Positions 11,023 through 33,968 of a stretch of DNA of 39,864 nt are shown here, piece by piece (position 1 is the first letter of the stretch; each line of letters opens with the position of its first letter). The position numbers and the translations under genes were made by a program. Origin of the DNA: Thermoproteota archaeon (GTDB lineage: Archaea > Korarchaeota > Korarchaeia > Korarchaeales > Korarchaeaceae); the NCBI GenBank assembly GCA_027491735.1, contig JAOZGP010000018.1:1-39864 (forward strand). Direction: 5' to 3'. Under the pieces are notes generated by a model. That model worked only from the letters and a program-made list of their open reading frames with translations. It did not search any database and was not told the DNA's origin.

Positions 11023-11120
11023 GAGACCGCCTCTCCTAGAGCTGGCAATGGATAAATTTATTCTTAACCTGACTGAAGGTTCTTTAACACTGCGAAGTAG
11101 ACAAGCAGCGGTCGGTGACT

Positions 11121-11345
11121 ATGAGGCTGAAGGTCCTCATCCATCCCAATAGCAGAATGGAGAGGGTGGAGAGACATGAGGGATATATGGAGGTCTGGAT
11201 CAGGGAGCCAGCTAGGAGAGGAAAAGCCAACAAACGCCTGGTGGAGGTTGTGGCCGAACACTTCGGGATCAGGAGGTCCAAGGTGAGGATAGTGGAGGGG
11301 TTCACCTCGAGGGAGAAGGTGCTGGAGATCGATCTAAAGAAGTGA
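11121..11345 (+). CDS. DUF167 (UPF0235) family protein
   Basis: VWIREPARRGKANKRLVEVVAEHFGI...VRIVEGFTSREK pattern. Confidence 0.85.
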   Translation: MRLKVLIHPNSRMERVERHEGYMEVWIREPARRGKANKRLVEVVAEHFGIRRSKVRIVEGFTSREKVLEIDLKK

Positions 11346-12559
11346 TCTCGATGCACTTCGGGTTCAGCTATATCACTGAACTGTTCCCTGTATATCTCGC
11401 TGTCTTCTCAATGAGACTGAGCTTTGGGCTTGTGGTCTTCACGCTTCCACTCTATCTCGGAAATCATTATCTTTCCATAGGCCTCGTGGCCTCCTCATAT
11501 CCCCTGCTGGAGCTTCTGTCGATATTTCCTTTAGGCATACTATCGGATAAATACGGAAGAAAAACGGTCCTGGTGATGGGTCTTCTGCTGTCGGCGTTGG
11601 ATCTTCCCTTGTTCTCCCTCACCAGAAGTGTGGTGTTGCTAGCTGGAATACATGCCATTCAAGGATTGGCAGCTGCCGCGGTCATGGCGAGCTCGTTGGC
11701 CGCCATATCCGATAAAGCAGAGAAGAGCCACAGAGGAAGAGAGATGGGGGTCTTCGACTTCTCTAACATGGCCGGCTACATGCTCGGCTTTCCTCTCTCA
11801 GGCCTACTGGTGGATCTTACCAGGGAGCTGAGGATCTGCTTTTTCATTGCCTCCCTGATAGCAGCGATCGGACTGATCTTTGCCATTAGGGTCCTTCCAT
11901 CGGAGAGGCCACCTTTTCCCGAGATAAACGTCGTGGAGAGGATCATTCTCACGATGAGGAACATAAAGATAAGCAGAGAGGCTCCTTTATTGGCGATCCT
12001 GTGGTTTATCGTCATGATGTACGTAAGCTTCGTCCTCTCATTTGGATCCTCTCTCTGGAGGGAGATATCCAGAGGCTCAGGACTAGGCTTCACGGAATTC
12101 GGTCTTGGATTTGGCCTCATCATATCGATCTTAGCGGTTACTCAACCAACTCTGGGAGCCATATCAGACAGAATAGGAAGGGATAAATCACTGCTGATAA
12201 GCAGCTCATCCATAACGGCCCTACTCGTTGTGTTCGTCTTACTGCTTCAGGGATCTCTCGATCTCCTGATGGCAACACCTTTGGTGGCGTTCTTCGGTAT
12301 CGGAGCCCTCATGTTCTCTCCAGCTGGTTTGGCTGCCCTGGCGGACGCCTCCATGGAGGAGGTGAGAGGATCCTTCATGGGTTTCTACAGCTTCACAATG
12401 AACCTGGGCAACCTTACAGGTCCTGTGGTCGGAGGAATTTTTCTGAGCTGCTTCGGGATGAGGGAAGGGATAACAGCAATGCTGATCTTGGGGGTTCTCC
12501 TGACGGGAGGATGCTCCTTATCCCTAGCAAAAAAAACCTTCAGAGGAGGTTCTCCTTAA
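11342..12559 (+). CDS. MFS transporter
   Basis: About 12 hydrophobic segments; motif A twice (GILSDKYGRK, GAISDRIGRD). Confidence 0.9.
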   Translation: MISMHFGFSYITELFPVYLAVFSMRLSFGLVVFTLPLYLGNHYLSIGLVASSYPLLELLSIFPLGILSDKYGRKTVLVMGLLLSALDLPLFSLTRSVVLLAGIHAIQGLAAAAVMASSLAAISDKAEKSHRGREMGVFDFSNMAGYMLGFPLSGLLVDLTRELRICFFIASLIAAIGLIFAIRVLPSERPPFPEINVVERIILTMRNIKISREAPLLAILWFIVMMYVSFVLSFGSSLWREISRGSGLGFTEFGLGFGLIISILAVTQPTLGAISDRIGRDKSLLISSSSITALLVVFVLLLQGSLDLLMATPLVAFFGIGALMFSPAGLAALADASMEEVRGSFMGFYSFTMNLGNLTGPVVGGIFLSCFGMREGITAMLILGVLLTGGCSLSLAKKTFRGGSP

Positions 12560-13840: not shown

Positions 13841-14641
13841 TTGACGAACCCTTCAGATCTGGCTCACAGGGTATCGACGCTGACAGCTGTGTTCCTAGCT
13901 ATGTTAACACTTGTACTCGGCTTAGCAGGATCAGCTGGCGTGATCCAGATAGGGGAGGACTCCCTGATCATGATACTGCTGGGAGCAGCGACTCTAACGG
14001 CGCTCATCCTCTATCTCAGGGATTTCGACTGGGGTGCTTGGATCGGAGCTATCTGCTTGTTGGCGAATGCTTACTATCTTGCTTGGCCATCCGAAAACTT
14101 CCTGAACGGATTACCATTTCTCATGAATTCACATAGATATCTGTCTGTGCTTTACGGGCTGGTGAGCCTGGCGTTCATAGGGACATCCTCGGGGCAGCTG
14201 CCCTCGATGGCTCCGGCCTCAGCGAGTTCGATGAAGACGAGACCGCAGTCAGCTCTAAGAGAGGTCACGGAGGAGATGGACGAGAGCATGTTCAAATACT
14301 CTTTGGAGCTTCCAGATGGGAGGAGGCTCGGGGTTATGGACGACTACAGGGTGTTCGGGAGGAAGGACTTCGAGAACCTCGTTCCGAGGAGGAAGCTGAA
14401 GTACATATCCTTGAGACACTTCCTCATACGGAGGGTCAGGGGGAGCTACATGCTAAAGGATCTCCACAGCACCCACGGCATCGTTGTAGACGGACACGAG
14501 CTCCTTCCAGGTGAGGAGGTTCCTCTCAGGTATGGAAGCACTATAGACGTGGCAGGGGTTTTGGAGCTGATCTTCTATCCAAAAAGGGAGGAGAGGAGGA
14601 TTACCTCCTCCTCACGAGGAGGACGACCATCGCCACGATGA
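13841..14641 (+). CDS. Membrane protein with C-terminal FHA domain
   Basis: About 4 N-terminal TM helices; FGRKDF, ISLRHF, LKDLHSTHG; SD GGGGTGA before TTG. Confidence 0.8.
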   Translation: MTNPSDLAHRVSTLTAVFLAMLTLVLGLAGSAGVIQIGEDSLIMILLGAATLTALILYLRDFDWGAWIGAICLLANAYYLAWPSENFLNGLPFLMNSHRYLSVLYGLVSLAFIGTSSGQLPSMAPASASSMKTRPQSALREVTEEMDESMFKYSLELPDGRRLGVMDDYRVFGRKDFENLVPRRKLKYISLRHFLIRRVRGSYMLKDLHSTHGIVVDGHELLPGEEVPLRYGSTIDVAGVLELIFYPKREERRITSSSRGGRPSPR

Positions 14642-16544
14642 GCACCAGAGCAGCAGCGGCGATGATAATCTCGGAGGTTAATAGCGAGCTGACAGTTGTC
14701 TTGCTCACGACTTGGCCTGAGGTGGATGTGCCAGCAGAAGTCTTCTCAGTTAGGTTGAATACCCTGGTCACATGGTTGCCGGCCAGATCCGTGGCCTTAA
14801 CCTTCAGCTGTGTCCTGTCCGAGTAGGGTATCCAGACGATGTAACTTACGGTTCCGTTGTTCGATGGCTGAAGATCCACTAGAGGAGGCCTTCTCCAGGA
14901 TCCGGAGGAGTTGTACTCCACCTCCATCGGACCCGGTCCCCATCCGGAGTCGCTCTCCTTCAGATAGATCAACAGCCATGAGCCTCTCCCTGTGTGGTTC
15001 ACCACCTCAACTGACGGAGGAGATAGGTCCTTGAAGGAGTACATCACGATGCTGATGATGGACTTGGCCGGAAGCTCAACTCCCTCGAACACCACGAACT
15101 TGTACTTATCACCTACAATCACCTTGAACCTGGGCTCAGTCGTCCCGGAGAACTTGAGCTTCATCTTGCCGATGTTCGCGTTCTTTGGAAACCTGAACAC
15201 AACCCTCACGTCCTTGAACTTCTGCTTCAGCTCGTTCATAGCGAAGAAAGACACATCTCTGTGCTTACCATCGTTGTTCACGTAATAATACTTTAGAAGT
15301 CCTATCTGATAGGGCTCGACGTCCTCTCCGGAATCAAGGGGTATGGAGTTCGGATATTTGGCAAATCCAGTGTCGTCGTAGTAGGTGGTACTCAGATTGA
15401 TCGTGCCGTTGGAGTAAATGCTCAAAACCTTGTATCCCCTTATGTCGTGCTTTCTTATATCGTAAGCTATGGCCGCGGGCGATATGAAGTAGTGTCTATG
15501 TCCCTCAGAGTCCACAACCACGACGTTCAGGTCGGTGTGTATGTGCTCAGATGTTATCAACCTCACGTCGTGCTTGAGCACCAGATCGAACAGGTACTTG
15601 GCCTCTCTCGGGTGCTCCGCCCAGCTCGGATATATGTATCCGTTGCTCAGGAACTTGTTGAAGTCATCGGTAGAGTTCACGGTGAAGTTGTAAATCCCGA
15701 GCTCCTTGAGCCTCGGATTGAACAGCGGGTGATGGAAGGCTACGATCTTAAAACATCCCTCATTCTTGGACATGACCTCATCGGCCCAGTGAAGGTATTT
15801 CATCCTGACCCATCCATCCTTGTCGCTCGGGAGAACCACAATCAGAAAGTCTCCTATTCTGACCGAGTAGTTCAGCGGTCCAACTATGCTCTGATATATG
15901 CCCGCCTCTCCGGTGCTCTCGTACTCGTGATTGCCGACAACAACGTAGGTAGGGACTCTCAGCATCATGAATGAGCCCAGAAAGTACTGCCAAGCGGACT
16001 TTATCACCGGTGTCTCCACCAGATCTCCCAGGAAGATTGCCACGTCAGGGTTGATGAGGTTTGCCTCGCGCACAGCCTCGTAGAGGTAGGGAGCACCTGT
16101 GGGAGTCTTCACGTCACCGAAGAGGAGGAATCTGAGGTGGGTTGGCCAGCTCCTCAGAACCCACACGGAGTTGGGCTCCACTACACTTCCTGAGGGTGTC
16201 TCAAGCGTCAAGTTGTACAGACCCGGGAGGACTTCCTTTGGAAGGCTGAAGGAATAGTTGACCAGCTTTCCCTGCTTCTCAGATTTCACTAAGGACAGAT
16301 CATAGCTTCTGAACTGACCCACAATCTTGGCAGACTTGACCCCCAGGGAGCTCACCACAAGGCAGCTGATCCTCCCTCCGATAAGCACCGGCTCAGGCAC
16401 CGAGAATAGCGGATATTTCACCTTATCAGCATAGAAGACCACATGAGCTTTTGGGAGAGCTGCGACGGACATGGGGGGAAGTGCTAGGAAGACAAGGAGC
16501 GCTGCCCAGAGCAATCTCACGCGCATGCAGTCACCAAGACTCAT
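14601..16544 (-). CDS. Secreted, membrane-anchored calcineurin-like metallophosphoesterase
   Basis: Signal peptide; GDVK, GDLV, GNHE, FHHP, EHIH; S/T-rich linker, TM helix and RRR tail. Confidence 0.85.
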   Translation of the reverse strand: MSLGDCMRVRLLWAALLVFLALPPMSVAALPKAHVVFYADKVKYPLFSVPEPVLIGGRISCLVVSSLGVKSAKIVGQFRSYDLSLVKSEKQGKLVNYSFSLPKEVLPGLYNLTLETPSGSVVEPNSVWVLRSWPTHLRFLLFGDVKTPTGAPYLYEAVREANLINPDVAIFLGDLVETPVIKSAWQYFLGSFMMLRVPTYVVVGNHEYESTGEAGIYQSIVGPLNYSVRIGDFLIVVLPSDKDGWVRMKYLHWADEVMSKNEGCFKIVAFHHPLFNPRLKELGIYNFTVNSTDDFNKFLSNGYIYPSWAEHPREAKYLFDLVLKHDVRLITSEHIHTDLNVVVVDSEGHRHYFISPAAIAYDIRKHDIRGYKVLSIYSNGTINLSTTYYDDTGFAKYPNSIPLDSGEDVEPYQIGLLKYYYVNNDGKHRDVSFFAMNELKQKFKDVRVVFRFPKNANIGKMKLKFSGTTEPRFKVIVGDKYKFVVFEGVELPAKSIISIVMYSFKDLSPPSVEVVNHTGRGSWLLIYLKESDSGWGPGPMEVEYNSSGSWRRPPLVDLQPSNNGTVSYIVWIPYSDRTQLKVKATDLAGNHVTRVFNLTEKTSAGTSTSGQVVSKTTVSSLLTSEIIIAAAALVLIVAMVVLLVRRR

Positions 16545-22555: not shown

Positions 22556-22995
22556 AAGATCCCCCGTGAGGAACCTGATCTCATCAAATAAAAAAATCAT
22601 AATCACAATATCACAATGTCCGTGCATTGTCGCGTAATCCTTTCCCTACCTTCAGTCTCCACCGTGAGGCCCTCACAGAGATTGAGAAGCGTGCAACACA
22701 GAACTGCTTCCTTCGGTCTGGGTCACGCAGCTCGTGCCACACCAAATTGCTGAGCTCTTTTCAGCACTTCATGTCCTTAAACACAAAAGCAGATCACCTC
22801 CAATCCAATCCTTTCGTTAAAACGGTGGGCTTTCTCAGACTTTCCTTAAACGGTTTTCTTCACAATCTCGGGTTTTGACCCAATCTTCCTCAAATACAAA
22901 CTCATCCCCCAACAATAGGATCAGATCAGGAGGTCTGCCTTAGTGGATGATAAATCCGAGGTAGAACTTTAAGGCTTGAGGTTTCCAAGTGGAGT

Positions 22996-23319
22996 ATGTA
23001 CGACGTCGAGGAGTTCTGGGAGTTTGATCTCAGGATCGGCCTTGTGGAAGAAGCTGAGAGGATACCAAAGTCAAGAAAGCTGATAAAGCTCTTGGTGAAC
23101 TTTGGAAGCGAGAGAAGGGTCATAGTCACAGGAATAGCTGATCAGTACTCACCTGAAGACCTCAAGGGAAAGAGGATGATATTCGTCCTGAACCTCAAGC
23201 CTAAAAGGATAATGGGAATTGAAAGTCAGGGGATGCTTCTCCTGGCGGAGGAGGGATCGGGGAGAGTACACCTCATAACAGTGGGCGAGGACGTCCCACC
23301 GGGAACCAAGGTCTGGTGA
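22996..23319 (+). CDS. Stand-alone tRNA-binding OB-fold protein (Trbp111/CsaA/MetRS C-terminal-like)
   Basis: DLRIG...KLIKLLVNFG...NLKPKRIMGIESQGMLL. Confidence 0.9.
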   Translation: MYDVEEFWEFDLRIGLVEEAERIPKSRKLIKLLVNFGSERRVIVTGIADQYSPEDLKGKRMIFVLNLKPKRIMGIESQGMLLLAEEGSGRVHLITVGEDVPPGTKVW

Positions 23320-23510
23320 CCCGATCCAGCAGATAGGCTAAAAGGCGCTGGTGGTGGACACCTGATCCATGAGGTTCATCAGCTAAGTAGAACGAGAGGC
23401 GCATGAGAAGTTGGGTCTGACCCGGAGTCATGCTCTCCAGAAGCTGTCTCTAGCGATACACTGCCCGGCTGAGGTAAGCTTCTTTAAGTTTTAGAGAGGC
23501 GAGTTTGTCG

Positions 23511-24617
23511 ATGAAAGCGGTGGTGCTCGCTGCTGGCAGAGGTGTGAGGCTTCGCCCTCTGACCGACTCCATGCCGAAGGCGATGCTCCCCATATGCAAC
23601 AAGCCATTGCTGGATCACATAATGGATCTCCTCAGAAGGCATGGGATCGACGAGGTGGCGGTGGTCGTCGGTTACAAGGAGGACGTTGTGAGGAATCATC
23701 TGAAGGGCAATGTGACCTTTTTCAGGGACGAAAAGATATGCGGAACCGCCTCCGCATTATATGCGGCCAAGGACTTCATAGACGAGGACTTTCTGTTGGT
23801 GTACGGCGATCTCTTCATAGACGCCTCTCTTGAGGGGGTGGTAGAAACCGAGAACTCCATGGCAGTCTACAGAGTTAAGGACGTCTCTAGATATGGAAAG
23901 GTGATCGTCAAGAACGGACTCCTCGCGAGAATCATGGAAAAGAGCGGGTCAGGAGAGGGCCTCATAAACGCCGGCATATATCACCTCGATCCGGAGATAC
24001 TGGACTTCGTTGAGAAAACTCAAAGGAGTGAGAGGGGGGAGTATGAGCTCACCGACTCCATAACAATGCTCTCTGAGAAGAAGGGAATCAAAATCATTGA
24101 AATAGATGGGTACTGGAATGACATCGGATATCCTTGGGACTATCTCGACGTAAACGAGTATTTGCTCGAGAAGCATGGCATGATAGTTGGAGAGGACGTG
24201 GAAGTGTGGTGCACGTCCGTTGTGAGGAAACCCGTGGCGTTGGGGGACGGTTGCGTTCTCCGGGGATGTGTCGTGGAGGCCTCGGTCATCGGAAGAGGAT
24301 GCATCATCGGAGAGTTCTCATCGGTGAGGAACAGCGTCCTGATGGACAGCACGCGTATATCCCCGAGCTGCACTATCTCTCACTCAGTGGTGTCTGACAA
24401 CTGCTACATAGGTCCTGGCTCCGTTTTGAAGAGCACTCCCTTGGATGGATCGACGGTCAGAATGAGAATAAAGGGCGGGATGGTGGATAGCAAAAGGGAG
24501 AACATGGGTCCTCTCATAGGATCCGGAGCCCGCATAGGAGCATGCACCGTCATCATGCCGGGGGCAAAGATAAGCTCCGGCTCGACGGTGAGGGAGGCAT
24601 CAGTTGTGAGCGCTTGA
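23511..24617 (+). CDS. Sugar-1-phosphate nucleotidylyltransferase with C-terminal left-handed beta-helix (archaeal GlmU-like)
   Basis: LAAGRGVRLRPLT..PK, YGD, RGEYELTD, WNDIGYPWD; hexapeptide repeats. Confidence 0.88.
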   Translation: MKAVVLAAGRGVRLRPLTDSMPKAMLPICNKPLLDHIMDLLRRHGIDEVAVVVGYKEDVVRNHLKGNVTFFRDEKICGTASALYAAKDFIDEDFLLVYGDLFIDASLEGVVETENSMAVYRVKDVSRYGKVIVKNGLLARIMEKSGSGEGLINAGIYHLDPEILDFVEKTQRSERGEYELTDSITMLSEKKGIKIIEIDGYWNDIGYPWDYLDVNEYLLEKHGMIVGEDVEVWCTSVVRKPVALGDGCVLRGCVVEASVIGRGCIIGEFSSVRNSVLMDSTRISPSCTISHSVVSDNCYIGPGSVLKSTPLDGSTVRMRIKGGMVDSKRENMGPLIGSGARIGACTVIMPGAKISSGSTVREASVVSA

Positions 24618-24666
24618 CCTCAGCGATCCCAATATTTTTTATCCAAGTTTAAGTTCCTAGAAATCA

Positions 24667-26208
24667 ATGGCCTCCGAGTATGTTGTAGCGACCCTAACCA
24701 ATGCTGGCATGGACGAAAGGACTGCTAGGGTGATCTTAGAGAGAATTCGGAGATCTGGTCTCCTTGAGGATTTGGAGAACCTGTACGATGTGATAGGGCG
24801 AGCTAAGGAGTCCTTGGAGGAGGTGAAGGACAAAGATCCGACCACATACACTCGCCTTAGGGCGAGAGCTGAGGCGGCGGAGGGAAGGTTCAGAGAACTG
24901 ATAGAGGATATAGGCAGGGATCCAGCGTTCTCGAAACTAGTCCGCCTTTCATTCCGGGTCGAGATACCTCTTCGCGTTCTCATTCCTTATAGAAATAAAG
25001 TAATAGAGATAAAAGATATATTTGAGGAGATATTATCTGAGTCGAGAGGAGCGGGTCCCCTATCCAGAGCCTCAATGGGAGTCTCCAAGGAAAGCTTATC
25101 GGAGATCAAAGGCGAGGTGGATAAAATAAAAGAGCAGATATCTCGAATGGAGGGTGAAGGCGTCTCTCTAGATTTCATTAAGGCTGACGTAAAGCGAGCT
25201 GAAGACCTCCTGTCTCGAGCTGATGAGACTGCCTCCATCGCGGCCATAAAAATGGTTCAGAAATCGCTGGATCAGATAAAAGGGGACATGAACAAGATAA
25301 GCGAGATAATAGCTAGAAAGGAGAGGATAATATCTGTTCTCTCCAAGGTTAAGAAGGTATGTCAGTACCTGGACAGGCTGACCTCCTCGGACATATACGA
25401 GGCCTTCTATGAGAGACTCTCCTCTCATATCTCAGCTGTAGAGAACGAACTGACATCGAGAGAGGATGTAGGCAGGCTGTTAGATGATACAAAAAGATTG
25501 GAAAATTACGTGAACACGCTTCTTGATCTGTATCCATTCATGGACCGCGGCATGAATCCGTTCGATGCACTCTCCTTGATGGAGGAGGGTCTCGATGTTC
25601 TGGATGCCATGAAGGCCGTCATGGCCGACGAGGGCCTGAGCAAGGAGGACAAGGCAGCCAGATGTCTGGACCTCATGAGGGGGAGGATAGCAAATGTGGA
25701 CGAGTTCATGGAGATAGTCTCTGAGGCCAGGAGGTTGTATCCATTCTGGAAATCCTACATAATGAGCCTCCTCAAGGAGAAGGGTTACATGGTCCATGTG
25801 GATGACCTGGAGAAGATACCAAAGAAGTGGAGGGGACTCATAATGAGAATGGTGTCCTCCGAGGATGACGACATAGTGATGGAGGGAGATCTCGTAATTC
25901 ACAAAAGAGCGATCTCTGATCAGGTGCTCGAGGAGGAGTTGAACAGCATTTATGAGGACGCCAGGATCCTTCGGGATGTGTTCGAGAAGCTGCTGAGGCT
26001 TGAAATTCCGTCTGAGGGTTTCATCAGTGATATCAACGACATCATCGCTGAGGTAGGGAGAATGAAGCGCGATCCGGATGAAGCATCCTTTCTTGAGGTG
26101 TACTCGATTAAAAAGAGGATCAATGAGATAAAAGACCATCTGAAATCACTGTTTTCTCAGCTGACATCTGAGGAGGCTGAGGAGGGAACGAATAAAGGTG
26201 CTGAATAA
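24667..26208 (+). CDS. Uncharacterised coiled-coil-rich protein with possible internal winged-helix segment
   Basis: 513 aa, E/K/R/L/I heptad-rich; no TM segment or NTPase motif seen. Confidence 0.8.
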   Translation: MASEYVVATLTNAGMDERTARVILERIRRSGLLEDLENLYDVIGRAKESLEEVKDKDPTTYTRLRARAEAAEGRFRELIEDIGRDPAFSKLVRLSFRVEIPLRVLIPYRNKVIEIKDIFEEILSESRGAGPLSRASMGVSKESLSEIKGEVDKIKEQISRMEGEGVSLDFIKADVKRAEDLLSRADETASIAAIKMVQKSLDQIKGDMNKISEIIARKERIISVLSKVKKVCQYLDRLTSSDIYEAFYERLSSHISAVENELTSREDVGRLLDDTKRLENYVNTLLDLYPFMDRGMNPFDALSLMEEGLDVLDAMKAVMADEGLSKEDKAARCLDLMRGRIANVDEFMEIVSEARRLYPFWKSYIMSLLKEKGYMVHVDDLEKIPKKWRGLIMRMVSSEDDDIVMEGDLVIHKRAISDQVLEEELNSIYEDARILRDVFEKLLRLEIPSEGFISDINDIIAEVGRMKRDPDEASFLEVYSIKKRINEIKDHLKSLFSQLTSEEAEEGTNKGAE

Positions 26209-26253
26209 TATTTAAAATAGTCCTAACGCTGGGTCCTACAAGGTGTTCCCCCG

Positions 26254-27453
26254 ATGAAGTGGTACGGGGTGGGTCTCGGTGGAGCTGGCGGTAACATAAT
26301 GGACACAACTTACGGATTGATGAGGGAGAACTTCATCGGTGTTTCTGTGTTCAACACCGCTGAACCAGATAAGGCAAAACTGAGCTTCCTCAAGGAGAGG
26401 TTTTTCCTCTTCGGGGATTTCGGGGGGGCTGGTGTCGGGTCAAAGTGGAAGGACTCCAGGGATGCCATAACTCAGGAGAAGTGGAAGAAGGTTTTTGTGG
26501 AGAACGTGGTCTCCGATGGAATAGCAGAAAGCCAGGCGGTTCTGCTCGCTTCCTCAACCGGAGGGGGTACCGGAAGTGGTGCCATACCAGTTGTTTCCGG
26601 TTATATTAAGGAGATCCTCTCCTCCGGCGGCAGGATTGTACAGCCCATGATAGCTGGCGTAGTTCTTCCCTTCAGGTATCCGAAGGAGACCATGAGATTC
26701 AGCTACAACACAGCCATCTGCTTGGCTAACCTTCTGGATAAGGTGGACGCCATCTTGATCGCGGACAACGATTATCTCATGGAGAGGATAACTCAGGAGA
26801 CGCCCAACATAAGCGACGTCGAGCTTTTAGACAAGATAAATGTGAGCATCGCTGAGGCCTTGAGAGTTCTCTCCTCAGCATCTGAAACTCCAATAAAGGG
26901 TGGATTTAAGACAACCTTTGATTCTCAAGACCTCAAGAGCTCGCTGAGCATGTTCGAGGCTGCTCTCGTGGTTCCATATTACTTCAGAACCAGGGTGGAT
27001 GTGCTGGGCGGCAGTCTGGAGTTCCTGGTGGAGGCAGCTCTTGAGGCGGGAGGTCTCGCGAAAGCAGATCCGAGCACAGCTATCAAGGCTGCCTTCGTCG
27101 TGAAAGGTCCTGAGACCTTGGTCACTGTGGACAACATCTTCCAAGCCAAGAGGGTACTTGTGGAGAGGATAGCTGGAGTTGACGTCCGGGAGGGAATTGC
27201 AGCGACTCCTCCGGACTCCAAGTATATAGAAATAGCCGTGCTGCTTGTGGAGCCCAAGATAGACAGGATAGATGAGGTAGCTGAGCAGGCCAGAGTATAC
27301 TACGACCTGTTTGAGGATGACCTGACAGCGAAGGAGAGCACCCCCCGAGAGGAGTTCGAGTCGTACCTCAAGAGGCTCGAGGATCACATGAACAGGGTGG
27401 ACACTAAGAGAGAGCAGCTAGTCAGGGTTAAGGGGACGATGCAGTCACCATAG
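26254..27453 (+). CDS. Tubulin/FtsZ-superfamily GTPase, not canonical FtsZ (CetZ/TubZ/tubulin-like)
   Basis: GLGGAGGNI, NTA, GAGVG, signature GGGTGSG (26560-26580), VLPF, YNTA, ADND, T7-like TTFDSQDL. Confidence 0.93.
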   Translation: MKWYGVGLGGAGGNIMDTTYGLMRENFIGVSVFNTAEPDKAKLSFLKERFFLFGDFGGAGVGSKWKDSRDAITQEKWKKVFVENVVSDGIAESQAVLLASSTGGGTGSGAIPVVSGYIKEILSSGGRIVQPMIAGVVLPFRYPKETMRFSYNTAICLANLLDKVDAILIADNDYLMERITQETPNISDVELLDKINVSIAEALRVLSSASETPIKGGFKTTFDSQDLKSSLSMFEAALVVPYYFRTRVDVLGGSLEFLVEAALEAGGLAKADPSTAIKAAFVVKGPETLVTVDNIFQAKRVLVERIAGVDVREGIAATPPDSKYIEIAVLLVEPKIDRIDEVAEQARVYYDLFEDDLTAKESTPREEFESYLKRLEDHMNRVDTKREQLVRVKGTMQSP

Positions 27454-27474
27454 TACTCCGACGAGGGACTCTCC

Positions 27475-28242
27475 TTGTCTACGGATGAGCTCAGAACTCT
27501 TCTGGAGGACAAGACCTCAGGAGCCTCTCGGATAGCTCTAAGGGCTGCTAAGGTCCTCTCATTGCTCGAGATGGATGAGGCGCTGAAGTGGGCCGAGATG
27601 CTTCGCAGAGCCCATCCGGAGATGATCCCTCTTCAGAACCTCAACTTGGTCCTCAGGTCATCTGGACTTGATGGTCTGAGGAGATTTCTCAATGCTCTGG
27701 AGACCGGAAGGGATTTGATACCTAGAAAGGCAACACTTCTCCTAGAGAAGCTTGGAGTAAGTCGTTTATCCACAATGAGCTGGTCTTCCACAGTTTTCGA
27801 GTGCATTTTGGCACTCCAACAGAGAGGCCTGCTGGACGACGTGCTCATAGGGGAATCTCTCCCGGGAGGGGAGGGCCACAGGACCTCAAAGCTTCTGTCT
27901 GAACGTGGAATCATCACGAGGGTGGTGCCCGACGCTCTTCTCCCGTGGTCATCGGTCTGTGAGAGAAGAGGAGTTCTGGTCGGAGCTGACGCCATCTACT
28001 CGGATGGAACCGTAGTCAACAAGGTGGGAACCATGCCCCTCGCCTTATCCTGTAAATATCATGACCTTCCGGTGATCGTCGTCTCAGATACGACGAAGAT
28101 ATGGCATAATCCGATAAGCGAAGAGAGAAGGCTCGCGATCTCCGAGATGTTCGATGTAACACCTCCCGATGCCCTGTCAGCGATAGTAACTGAGAGGGGC
28201 GTCTTCAAACCTCCGTTCAGGTTTTCCTCCTTCTGGATCTGA
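27475..28242 (+). CDS. eIF-2B alpha/beta/delta-family protein (ribose-1,5-bisphosphate isomerase-like)
   Basis: DKTSGAS, ESLPGGEG, VLVGADAI..DGTVVNKVGT, FDVTP...IVTERG. Confidence 0.87.
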   Translation: MSTDELRTLLEDKTSGASRIALRAAKVLSLLEMDEALKWAEMLRRAHPEMIPLQNLNLVLRSSGLDGLRRFLNALETGRDLIPRKATLLLEKLGVSRLSTMSWSSTVFECILALQQRGLLDDVLIGESLPGGEGHRTSKLLSERGIITRVVPDALLPWSSVCERRGVLVGADAIYSDGTVVNKVGTMPLALSCKYHDLPVIVVSDTTKIWHNPISEERRLAISEMFDVTPPDALSAIVTERGVFKPPFRFSSFWI

Positions 28243-29167
28243 TCTCCGCTCTGATTCTAGCAGCCTCTCTCCTGGACTCTCTGTGAGCTATGACGAGGGG
28301 ATCAGGTTGCGGTCCTCTGAAGATGAAGTTCTCAGCTATCCTCCTGGAAGATTCCAGGCTGACTCTGTTTCCGGGAGACACAAAGATCTTCCTTCCCCTT
28401 CTGAGGACCCATCCCACATGGTCTCCATCCACGAGGATCCTGTCATCGATCACCCTTCCGACCAGGAGGGACTTAGCTACCCCTACCGATGGGACATCGA
28501 GAACTACCCCTAGGTGGCAGGCATCTCCAAACCTCTCCGGGTGTGCCAAGCCATGTCCATCGACGAAGAGGACGTCGAAGGAGCACCTCTTCACGACCAT
28601 GACGCACGGTCTCAACTCTCTGAAAGCTAAGAAGGTTGGTATATAGGGAAAGACAGGCTCGGTTCTGACAGTCTTGACCTCCACAACCTCCCCACTCCGG
28701 TTCATCACAGCGCAGGAGGCTACAGCTATCTCAGGGCAACCGTCAACATAGGAGACATCGACTCCCGCTGCCAGCTCGATCTGATCTGGATCCAGAGAGT
28801 CCTCGAGAGACATGAAGCTTCTCAGAACCCTTTGCGAGTTCCTAGCTCTCTTCAGCACAGGAACTATCCTGATGCCGATCTCGTCTGGTTTCACCAAGTG
28901 ATCCTCGGACACTCTCCCGCCTCTGATCTCCACGCCCTCCATCAGGAGAGGAAGCTTTGCCTCTCTTTGTATGGAGAGATCCTCCCTCACGACCTTGTAC
29001 CACTTCTCAAAACCGCAGAGCCTTAGTTTTCTCACACAACCAGCCAGGTACCTGGCGGCCCTTCTCCATCCAAGGAGCTCTGCCAGAGATCCGTAGGTTA
29101 TCACCTTTCCCTTTGGGAGCGAGTCGATCACCTGAGCTATGAGAATATCCACTCTGTTCATCTCCAC
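28217..29167 (-). CDS. nfi: Alkyltransferase-like (ATL) domain fused to endonuclease V
   Basis: N-terminal PKGKVITYGSLA...AAR...KWYKVV; C-terminal GVDVSY, FPYIPTFLAFRE, VDGHGLAHP, GVAKS, FVSPG. Confidence 0.92.
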   Translation of the reverse strand: MEMNRVDILIAQVIDSLPKGKVITYGSLAELLGWRRAARYLAGCVRKLRLCGFEKWYKVVREDLSIQREAKLPLLMEGVEIRGGRVSEDHLVKPDEIGIRIVPVLKRARNSQRVLRSFMSLEDSLDPDQIELAAGVDVSYVDGCPEIAVASCAVMNRSGEVVEVKTVRTEPVFPYIPTFLAFRELRPCVMVVKRCSFDVLFVDGHGLAHPERFGDACHLGVVLDVPSVGVAKSLLVGRVIDDRILVDGDHVGWVLRRGRKIFVSPGNRVSLESSRRIAENFIFRGPQPDPLVIAHRESRREAARIRAEIRSRRRKT

Positions 29168-32594: not shown

Positions 32595-32693
32595 GAAAGC
32601 ACCTTCAAATGAACCCGTTCCTCCGTAAAAAAGTTTTTCCACGTGGGGCTGGAAACTATTATCAATCCCTGGCAGCTGGAATGTTGGGTGTTA

Positions 32694-33968
32694 ATGTCCC
32701 TGATGATCGTGGCTGGAACGAGACCCGAACTGATAAAATTAGCTCCGGTCATTAAATCATTGAACGAACTTGGATTGGATTACACGTTTGTCTGGAGCGG
32801 ACAGCACTACGACTACCGACTGAGCAGGATATTCCTCGAGCAACTAGCGCTTCCCAATCCGGACGAGAACTTGGGAGTTGGTAGTGGCACTCACGCTGAG
32901 CAGACGGCGAGGCTCATGACGGCGCTCGAGAAGGTCATCGAGAGAAGAAAACCCGAGATCGTGATCGCTGAAGGAGATACGAACACTGTTCTGGCGGCGG
33001 CCATGACCTCCACAAAGATGGGGGTTCCCTTCGCTCACGTCGAGGCTGGACTCAGGAGCTGGGACAGAACTATGCCTGAGGAGATCAACAGGGTGGTGGC
33101 AGACTCCTTGGCGACCATGAACTTTGCCCCCACGGAGCTGGCGGTTGTGAACCTCACACATGAGGGCATCGATCTGGGAAGGATAGAGCTGGTCGGGAAT
33201 ACGGTGGTCGACGTGCTCATGGAAAACCTGTCGAGGGTCAAGGAGCTTAAACCCAAGGTCCTCAACGAGCTAGGTCTTGGTGAGAACGAATTCCTGCTCG
33301 CCACGGTACATCGACAGGAGAACACCGACAACGGGGTCCGGCTGAGGAACATAATCTCAGCCCTGAGGGAGCTGTCGGAGGAGATCCCAGTAGTTTTCCC
33401 GATGCATCCCCGGACCACCTCTAGGATAGGAAGGTATGGAGCTCTCCTCGAGGGAATAAAAGTGATAGAGCCCCTTGGTTATCTACAATTCCTATCCCTC
33501 CTATCGGCCTGTCTGGCCGTTCTCACCGACAGCGGAGGGGTGCAGGAGGAGGCCTTCACCTTGGGCATTCCAACGGTGACCCTCAGATACAACACGGAGA
33601 GGCCAGAGACTGTGAGGTTGGGAGGCAATTACCTGGTCGGGGCGAACAGAGATGAGATAGTGGAGCGTACCAGGCACGTGATTGAGAGACGAGACGAGAT
33701 AGTCAGGAGGATAAGGGAAGCTGAGAACCCCTTCGGAGATGGTAGATCTGGAGAGAGGATAGCCAAGATTCTGGCGTCCAGAAAGTTTGAGATCAGATCA
33801 TCTGATACGAGGACAGATCCCTACATAACCTACGCCCTGAGAAAAAACTTCTCCGGTGAGATTCTGTCGATGTACGATTCCGGGGGCGTGGCTGTAGCTT
33901 CTAAATCACTGGCCAAGTTTTTCACGGTGAGAGGTCCTGCGAGCAGATTGCTGACGAACAGCCCATGA
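32694..33968 (+). CDS. wecB: UDP-N-acetylglucosamine 2-epimerase (non-hydrolysing)
   Basis: GTRPELIKLAP, GQHYD, HVEAGLRS, PEEINR, TDSGGVQEEA, TERPE, NPFGDG. Confidence 0.93.
   Translation: MSLMIVAGTRPELIKLAPVIKSLNELGLDYTFVWSGQHYDYRLSRIFLEQLALPNPDENLGVGSGTHAEQTARLMTALEKVIERRKPEIVIAEGDTNTVLAAAMTSTKMGVPFAHVEAGLRSWDRTMPEEINRVVADSLATMNFAPTELAVVNLTHEGIDLGRIELVGNTVVDVLMENLSRVKELKPKVLNELGLGENEFLLATVHRQENTDNGVRLRNIISALRELSEEIPVVFPMHPRTTSRIGRYGALLEGIKVIEPLGYLQFLSLLSACLAVLTDSGGVQEEAFTLGIPTVTLRYNTERPETVRLGGNYLVGANRDEIVERTRHVIERRDEIVRRIREAENPFGDGRSGERIAKILASRKFEIRSSDTRTDPYITYALRKNFSGEILSMYDSGGVAVASKSLAKFFTVRGPASRLLTNSP

Follow-up and report, generated by a model that had tools for sequence, protein, structure and literature searches.

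Does a korarchaeal tubulin-superfamily GTPase act together with the helical protein whose gene lies directly upstream, and if so, in which cellular process? The question is raised by a 39,864-nucleotide stretch of DNA of a Thermoproteota archaeon from the class Korarchaeia (assembly GCA_027491735.1, contig JAOZGP010000018.1), which is referred to here as the window. The gene of the helical protein (CC) occupies positions 24667..26208 of the + strand and encodes 513 amino acids. The gene of the tubulin-like GTPase (TL) follows at 26254..27453 on the same strand, encodes 399 amino acids and is separated from CC by 45 nt. The original prediction, made from the sequence alone, described CC as a soluble protein co-oriented with a tubulin-superfamily GTPase. 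The open reading frame list, a match of TL to PF00091 and hydropathy bear this out: the highest 19-residue Kyte-Doolittle mean is 0.96 in CC and 1.26 in TL, and neither protein contains a membrane-span-like stretch. TL proved to be a divergent GTPase of the CetZ type. The all-helical CC belongs to a small, Korarchaeia-centered family, and we propose it as an adaptor or regulator of TL. Genomes are labeled G000 (that of the window; an assembly of 1.36 Mb in 41 contigs, 88% complete), G001 and so on; g1–g5 are genera of Korarchaeia, and f2 and f3 are other families.

The match of TL to the Pfam Tubulin/FtsZ GTPase domain has an E value of 8.2e-15 and 56 bits, with a cut-off of 33. The CetZ-type C-terminal domain CetZ_C (PF21011) is marginal in TL, scoring 22.4 bits against a cut-off of 21.6 over profile positions 103-179 only; the TL orthologue P0002 carries PF21011 in a precomputed domain list. 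The FtsZ equivalog model TIGR00065 gives TL 36.9 bits, far under its cut-off of 295.2, and the Pfam scan found no match to FtsZ_C (PF12327) in TL. In a sequence search of solved chains, the three best matches of TL were the CetZ structures 3zid, 4b46 and 4b45, with E values of 2.6e-7 to 1.6e-6. The AlphaFold2 model of TL (pLDDT 85.1, pTM 0.86; pLDDT 56.9-85.1 across the five models) ends in two helices, H337-361 and H365-396. The first four ranks in a Foldseek search with this model are taken by CetZ1 (4b46, E 2.0e-24) and CetZ2 (4b45, E 8.3e-24) of Haloferax volcanii and by chains A and B of CetZ from Methanosaeta thermophila (3zid, E 1.9e-21), the four spanning E 2.0e-24 to 6.7e-21, with TM-scores of 0.79-0.88 normalized to the target. 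The best FtsZ match has an E value of 1.4e-18, and TubZ (4ei7) ranks 24th with 4.5e-17. TL thus shares with CetZ proteins the GTPase and a CetZ-type C-terminal domain, and they are its best match in both sequence and fold. Even so, identity is low: TL shares 22% of residues with the CetZ chains of known structure, and about 29% with its closest homologues from outside Korarchaeia, all of them bearing CetZ_C. A word-indexed search of a collection of 5.8 billion proteins returned close korarchaeal relatives of TL, followed by CetZ_C proteins.

Phylogeny agrees with this placement. In a 29-row maximum-likelihood tree, nine TL rows form a clade with 100/100 support on a long stem of about 1.0 changes per column. 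The TL clade is nested in a 15-row clade, also supported 100/100, with every CetZ_C-bearing protein; the rows of FtsZ fall outside it, as does an array of five korarchaeal tubulin genes. The tree was built from a 34-row set by removing two long-branch rows and four near-duplicates and adding G049. A tree of the 34 rows under a site-heterogeneous model has a matching topology, with a support of 99 for the clade of TL and CetZ_C proteins. The CetZ rows are named by Pfam content, not by reference proteins, and support for where TL sits within the clade is weak (83/84). Domains, fold and phylogeny all identify TL as a CetZ-type protein, albeit a divergent one. Within the tubulin superfamily, it is a new offshoot of CetZ that is specific to Korarchaeia. 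The label of a non-FtsZ tubulin, given to TL earlier, holds as far as FtsZ is concerned, but TL can be placed more closely than that, as CetZ-type.

Two more tubulin genes of G000, both with FtsZ_C, lie on contig C31, which makes TL the third tubulin paralogue of the genome. TL thus coexists with FtsZ1- and FtsZ2-type genes, as CetZ proteins do. The korarchaeal tubulin array consists of five tandem tubulin-family genes in G013 (contig C1, ~900.6-906.2 kb; L048:1092-6655), which encode proteins of 323-342 aa with Tubulin domain scores of 97-142 bits. FtsZ_C is above cut-off in the fifth gene only and weak or absent in the other four, and in the trees the array is a clade of its own outside both FtsZ and CetZ.

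The nucleotide-binding signature of TL, GGGTGSG, is encoded at 26560..26580 on the + strand and spans residues 103-109. G103, G104, G105, T106, G107 and G109 are invariant among 14 TL orthologues, with S108 varying (A or G in g3), and G104, G105, T106, G107 and G109 are also invariant in the alignment with CetZ and FtsZ. The T7 loop of TL carries an acidic pair, D223 and D226, within the motif TFDSQD (26920..26931, + strand), which aligns with NVDLAD of FtsZ and VDAS[E/D] of CetZ. In FtsZ and tubulin, acidic residues of the T7 loop activate GTP hydrolysis in the neighboring subunit. By analogy, D223 and D226 are predicted to activate hydrolysis across a filament interface of TL; model confidence is low at the T7 loop (pLDDT <50 for residues 210-222). 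In TL orthologues from g3, DLSAQS replaces TFDSQD and both acidic residues are gone (L030:5691-6875, L033:4939-6123, L037:1728-2909, L035:4396-5580). GGGTG[AG]G is retained in these proteins, as is the overlap of their genes with CC, and they may be hydrolysis-deficient filament formers.

Profile searches found TL orthologues in 16 of 40 Korarchaeia genomes. They occur in every genome of g1 (4/4), g2 (5/5), g3 (5/5) and g5 (1/1), in one of 21 genomes of g4, and in none of the four genomes of f2 and f3. A survey of CetZ proteins names, in its available passages, Halobacteria, Archaeoglobales, Methanomicrobiales, Methanosarcinales and Thermococcales (PMC9856176); these passages do not mention Korarchae or TACK, and the supplementary tables of the survey could list korarchaeal sequences. 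CetZ is unreported in TACK or Asgard archaea according to the introduction of PMC10606840. Further CetZ-like groups were described by Santana-Molina et al. 2023 (PMC9871819), in whose main text Korarchae and TACK are absent and whose supplement may list them. The examined literature passages that contain both CetZ and Korarchaeota describe no korarchaeal CetZ, and among the matches listed for Korarchaeia and tubulin, none describes the CC-TL locus. TL differs from known CetZ proteins in its low identity, its barely passing CetZ_C domain, its long stem and its Korarchaeia host, which lies outside the distribution given in the passages of PMC9856176. Another difference is the helical partner gene that is conserved upstream of TL; the literature passages mention no such gene for CetZ.

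The AlphaFold2 model of CC is all-alpha (pLDDT 83.5, pTM 0.50) and composed of hairpins and three-helix bundles (residues ~130-214 and ~415-500). CC had been called heptad-rich, and a crude heptad score is indeed high at residues ~140-240 and 470-508, but the model of bundles with a winged helix does not contain a single long coiled coil. The winged-helix-like domain, encoded at 25696..25902 (+ strand), spans residues 344-412 and is the most conserved block of the family. Its secondary structure by DSSP is H344-371, E375-377, H386-399, E403-406 and E409-412, that is, helix, strand, helix and β-hairpin. The sole strongly conserved block in the family alignments coincides with this domain and reads LYPxW...IPxxWR, with invariant Y358, W361, P385 and W388.

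Searches with CC returned its own family and little else. No Pfam family exceeded its cut-off in CC or in 13 orthologues, which gave only sub-threshold coiled-coil noise; the NCBIfam scan gave no useful match to CC, and the ESM Atlas no usable one. Against the Protein Data Bank, phmmer found no sequence match to CC (best E 0.92), a profile of the conserved block reached E 0.075 at best with designed helical proteins, and Foldseek with the CC model found nothing at E<=0.001. Alignment of the CC winged helix with ScpB by hhalign gave a probability of 4.4%, with no detectable homology. Among 1.84 billion representatives, the conserved-block profile matches 47 proteins at E<=0.001, of which 22 reach E<=1e-10. 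CC is the founder of an unannotated protein family, all-helical with a winged-helix-like domain. Membership in an unrelated known family, which would have spoken against a partnership with TL, was thus not found: neither Pfam nor the solved structures gave a match to CC. In a 24-row tree of the family, deep nodes are unresolved, so that the CC genes next to TL in g3 may or may not be orthologous to their counterparts in g1, g2 and g5; the g4 genes seen belong to another branch. G000 has two paralogues of CC, L045:1486-3099 on contig C32 and L046:580-1911 on contig C23, neither of which adjoins a tubulin gene. Both begin with an N-terminal domain unlike CC, followed by helical segments and the winged-helix-like block. 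By eye we take this N-terminal domain to resemble thioredoxin or glutaredoxin, a label that no search supports.

EzrA of Firmicutes is a spectrin-like regulator of FtsZ, a tubulin-family filament. Its cytoplasmic domain (4uxv) is the best whole-chain match of the CC model in VIA-align, with Z 11.8, 328 residues aligned and an rmsd of 24.7; the caution line for helical proteins lies at about Z 13. Scores of this size can arise among helical proteins from a similar architecture, and the match is therefore a resemblance and not membership. The CC model resembles EzrA in its repeated antiparallel helical bundles, but CC has no membrane anchor and no sequence similarity to it, does not match Pfam EzrA, and contains the winged-helix-like insert. 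FtsZl1, as described in passages of Makarova and Koonin 2010 (PMC2875224), similarly joins three parts: a GTPase of the tubulin family, an extended coiled coil and a globular domain of alpha-helices. The parts of FtsZl1 form one polypeptide with a far more divergent GTPase, whereas CC and TL are encoded separately, and the C-terminal domain of TL is of the CetZ type.

CC is positioned directly upstream of TL, in the same orientation, in 10 of the 16 TL-bearing genomes (G000 and G001 in g1; G004, G008, G011 and G014 in g2; G005, G009, G012 and G015 in g3). The conserved adjacency that the original prediction had proposed to check is thus largely borne out. One extra gene stands between CC and TL in G007 (g5), contig ends cut the pair in G017 and G018, and the two genes are not adjacent in G002 and G003 (g1) and G049 (g4). 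The intervening gene of G007 (L031:6714-8105) encodes a helical-looking protein of 464 aa, which has no BLAST relation to CC-family members at E<0.01 and no Pfam family. The genomes of g2 and g5 have a single CC-family gene each, the TL-adjacent one. In g1 and g2, the spacers between CC and TL are 45-60 nt long. Four g3 genomes have a 4-nt overlap (TTGA) of the CC stop codon with the TL start codon, and AGGAGG inside CC; the overlap indicates co-translation there.

The gene upstream of CC differs among genera: it encodes an aminotransferase in g3 and ScpB in g2 and g5. In all four g2 loci and the one g5 locus, the order smc-scpA?-scpB-CC-TL is found on one strand; the g5 instance, in G007, includes the 464-aa gene between CC and TL. 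The smc gene is short, encoding 758-787 aa with matches to SMC_N (1e-44 to 1e-46), SMC_hinge and SMC_prok_A (398 bits). The ScpA candidate of 200-220 aa has no family match, and its counterpart in G000 is weakly ScpA (E 1.6e-4). The scpB gene matches PF04079 (2e-26). The smc gene linked to CC and TL is the sole SMC-hinge gene found in G007 and G008. In four of the five korarchaeal genomes searched, a single SMC-hinge gene was found, of 758-802 aa compared to ~1170 positions in the SMC_prok models (L029:1737-5011, L031:1312-4703 and contig C24 of G000, L062); the same search found no match in G009. After the short smc gene come a small ScpA candidate, which reaches the threshold of no family, and then ScpB. 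A literature search pairing CetZ with ScpB returned unrelated papers only.

The reading that we find best supported is a filament with an adaptor. TL most likely polymerizes with GTP into filaments other than the division ring, given that FtsZ1- and FtsZ2-type genes are present in addition to it. CC, with its soluble spectrin-like bundles and embedded winged-helix-like domain, would be a dedicated adaptor or regulator that binds the TL filament and links it to something else in the cell. In favor of this reading count the identity of TL, the linkage of the two genes amid differing flanks, the condensin context, the GTPase genes found near other CC-family members and the architectural resemblance of CC to EzrA. 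Whether CC and TL constitute such a functional filament-plus-adaptor unit, with TL polymerizing and CC binding to it, is in our estimate an even call. The most likely coupled structure would be the chromosome organized by SMC-ScpAB, which is the leading candidate because of the condensin context in g2 and g5; the pair would then be an apparatus of chromosome organization or segregation. A chromosomal role of this pair in particular, exerted through condensin, is a possibility that we put forward tentatively. In its most elaborate form, the TL filament would be hooked to SMC-ScpAB by the winged-helix domain of CC, producing a tubulin-based, condensin-coupled machine for chromosomal segregation, and the CC family would be general GTPase adaptors. 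We consider this form improbable, and the same holds for its corollary that branches of the CC family serve either tubulin-like GTPases or MglA/Arf-like GTPases with Roadblock proteins. Of the filament-plus-scaffold module first suggested for this locus, the adjacency stood and the condensin context favors the chromosome idea, but the simple coiled coil and the analogy to TubZ had to be given up.

A number of observations weigh against a filament-plus-adaptor unit acting on the chromosome. The pair is split in three genomes, two of which (G002 and G003) belong to the genus of the window. Since all 16 TL-bearing genomes are from one family (five genera), the adjacencies do not count as independent cases, and common inheritance may account for them. 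A gene of an ADP-forming acetate-CoA ligase alpha (TIGR02717, E 1.1e-140) is located directly downstream of TL in all 11 loci of g2, g3 and g5; in this clade, a conserved gene order is thus no proof of shared function by itself. CC paralogues exist without any neighboring tubulin gene. G024 (g4) retains a CC-family gene, and a profile search found no TL orthologue in it; two complete g4 genomes that lack TL have a CC-family gene 4-6 kb from other tubulin genes. With 12 K+R and 14 D+E, the winged-helix region of CC is not basic and thus does not favor DNA binding by CC, and the resemblance to EzrA falls under the VIA-align caution line. Owing to the loss of the T7 acidic residues in g3, hydrolysis-driven dynamics are not general to the TL clade. 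In G000 itself, smc-scpA?-scpB is located on contig C24 and followed by an unrelated gene, and the condensin link is therefore indirect for the window. Finally, signals in the spacer between CC and TL suggest that the two genes need not be expressed together.

The spacer begins with TATTTAAAA (26209..26217, + strand), a TATA-box-like sequence and candidate internal promoter of TL. The element has the form TGTTTAAAA in G001, and an analogous GTTAATATTATTCCC is present in four g2 genomes. The conservation of these elements in g1 and g2 means that TL is probably transcribable alone, and it strengthens the caveat, raised in the original prediction, that TL might have a promoter of its own. AAGGTG, a Shine-Dalgarno-like sequence, is located 8 nt before the TL start codon (26240..26245, + strand); it is kept in G001 and has the counterparts GAAGAGGTGG in g2 and AAGGGTGAGGGG in G002. 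Upstream of CC, the AT-rich, TATA-like element AATATTTTTTATCC (24631..24644, + strand), 23-36 nt before the start codon, is a candidate CC promoter, and a T-rich stretch like it occurs in G001. A scan for sigma-70-type promoters found sites no more frequently than in shuffled sequences; the bacterial model is not applicable to archaea. A search of sequencing runs found no RNA run with the locus, and one DNA run contained 0.11 of its words.

The conserved TATA-like spacer element would be expected if CC and TL were neighbors by descent alone. TL would then act by itself from its own promoter, and CC would be either a polarity scaffold of small GTPases or unrelated to TL. The separation of the genes in G002, G003 and G049 is consistent with this explanation, and the persistence of the ligase gene next to TL demonstrates inertia of gene order in the clade. 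Pairwise identities of CC and TL are correlated (r 0.92, 78 pairs), but we rejected the correlation as evidence, since shared phylogeny explains it and it is no more than shared phylogeny predicts. Descent alone fits less well with the persistence of the pair while both flanks differ among g1, g2/g5 and g3. It also does not account for the stop/start overlap in g3, for the single CC-family gene of g2 and g5 being the one next to TL, or for the near-absence of TL orthologues from g4, in which the CC genes seen are of another branch. We regard it as unlikely that CC and TL are neighbors for no functional reason.

The suggestion of a small-GTPase scaffold comes from other members of the CC family, of which we surveyed the neighbors at 12 loci. 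An MglA-like small GTPase gene adjoins the CC paralogue at each of the eight loci of g3 and g4 whose flanks are long enough; it is missing from the remaining four, namely the short locus L022 and the three paralogue loci of g1. In a g3 island (G009, L057:5470-8526), a Roadblock/LC7 gene (5.8e-15) follows the CC paralogue and the MglA-like GTPase. The g4 islands (G024, L056:2048-7014; G013, L061:3466-9012) contain a gene for a helical protein of 247-258 aa and, lying divergently, a Roadblock-like gene and an Arf-family GTPase gene (Arf 3.8e-53 and 1.6e-49). The island of the complete genome G013 lies about 4 kb from its five-gene tubulin array. Three weak, remote CC-family members (E 2e-5 to 6e-4) carry the conserved block directly before a Roadblock domain. 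The small GTPase of g3 has no match in G000, which is 88% complete. A korarchaeal Arf-related GTPase (bioRxiv 10.1101/2024.02.28.582541) and a korarchaeal MglA (PMC4316618) are on record, and a helical CC-type neighbor is not mentioned alongside them in the available passages of either source. CC paralogues in g3 and g4 thus adjoin genes of the MglA/MglB and Roadblock modules described in passages of PMC4316618, whereas CC of the window adjoins a tubulin-family GTPase instead.

A role in cell shape has to be considered because the nearest characterized relatives of TL are CetZ proteins, which function in rod-shape development and motility according to passages of PMC9856176 and PMC13644373. 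TL would form a cell-shape or envelope cytoskeleton like haloarchaeal CetZ1, giving the cell its shape or placing machinery at its surface, CC would be a cortical scaffold, and the condensin neighbors would be incidental. The only korarchaeote imaged is a long thin filament, as described in passages of PMC7613921. An archaeal GlmU-type gene is located directly 5' of CC, and the window also contains a UDP-GlcNAc 2-epimerase gene at 32643-33965; genes of cell-surface sugar epimerases are found in conserved cetZ neighborhoods in passages of PMC9856176. However, the GlmU-type neighbor is conserved in G001 only, as is the IF-2B-family gene directly 3' of TL. Hydropathy identifies no membrane-binding segment in CC or TL, and the order smc-scpA?-scpB-CC-TL in 5/5 g2 and g5 loci would be left unexplained. 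The separated TL genes of G002 and G003 also have a place in this explanation. In these genomes, CC remains near the genes of ArgRS and EndoV, and TL is elsewhere. There, TL precedes a gene (L025:2501-3946 in G002, L027:3649-5064 in G003) for a protein of 471-482 aa that has hydrophobic segments at both termini and an extended helical center, and which matches EzrA weakly (E 6.2e-6, 25 bits, cut-off 39.6). Taken together, a cell-shape function of the pair is possible, if doubtful.

The original prediction likened the pair to TubZ and its partners. TubR is a small winged-helix DNA-binding adaptor, and tubC consists of centromere-like repeats beside the operon on a plasmid or phage. CC and TL resemble the TubZ-TubR-tubC system in that a tubulin-family GTPase is encoded beside a protein with a winged-helix-type domain, upstream of it in this case, with the logic of a filament and an adaptor, and TubZ 4ei7 is among the fold matches of TL. 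On this basis, the locus could belong to a plasmid, a virus or an integrated element and serve its partitioning, with TL as the motor and CC as the centromere-binding adaptor. The analogy breaks down on the chromosomal context and on the repeats. The window scans revealed chromosomal housekeeping genes and no integrase, replication or phage genes. Positions 22600-28400 contain no iteron-like array, only two-copy matches of 14-18 nt. TL ranks with CetZ and not with TubZ in both Foldseek and the tree. CC is a multi-bundle protein of 513 aa without detectable TubR homology or a sequence match to any solved chain, and four genera have kept the locus by vertical descent. A mobile partition system of the TubZRC type is very unlikely.

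The scans with Pfam or NCBIfam covered 33 of the 34 non-overlapping open reading frames of at least 90 aa in the window, leaving out one 90-aa frame at 11087-11356. The window encodes ABC transporters, pyruvate phosphate dikinase, phosphoglycerate mutase, thymidine kinase, arginine-tRNA ligase, and proteins of glycolysis, sugar-nucleotide metabolism and repair. None of the 33 scanned frames encodes SepF, Snf7/Vps4 (ESCRT) or FtsZ, in agreement with the earlier statement that no division genes are nearby. A weak SepF-like match on another contig of G000 scores 24 bits, below the cut-off of 27. An open reading frame at 28217-29167 (- strand) encodes endonuclease V (PF04493, 2.6e-45) fused to an N-terminal DNA-binding domain of the methylguanine-methyltransferase type (PF01035, 1.4e-8), and overlaps the end of the IF-2B-family gene by ~25 nt. 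The gene of a protein with an FHA domain (13841-14638, + strand) converges on that of a 647-aa calcineurin-like phosphoesterase (14604-16544, - strand), and the two may be a phospho-signaling pair.

Chromosome segregation in archaea outside Crenarchaeota is largely unexplained. TL represents a CetZ-type clade in a TACK lineage, where the literature passages report none, and CC is a candidate dedicated partner of a CetZ-type protein, for which those passages mention no partner. In the sister genera, CC and TL are physically linked to the only SMC-ScpAB genes of the genome. Both proteins are small, soluble and from thermophile-type genomes, which makes their binding and polymerization directly testable in vitro. 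If CC, TL and condensin bind one another, a tubulin-family filament would be tied to condensin. If they do not, TL would still add a CetZ-like element to the cytoskeleton of archaea that grow as very thin filaments.

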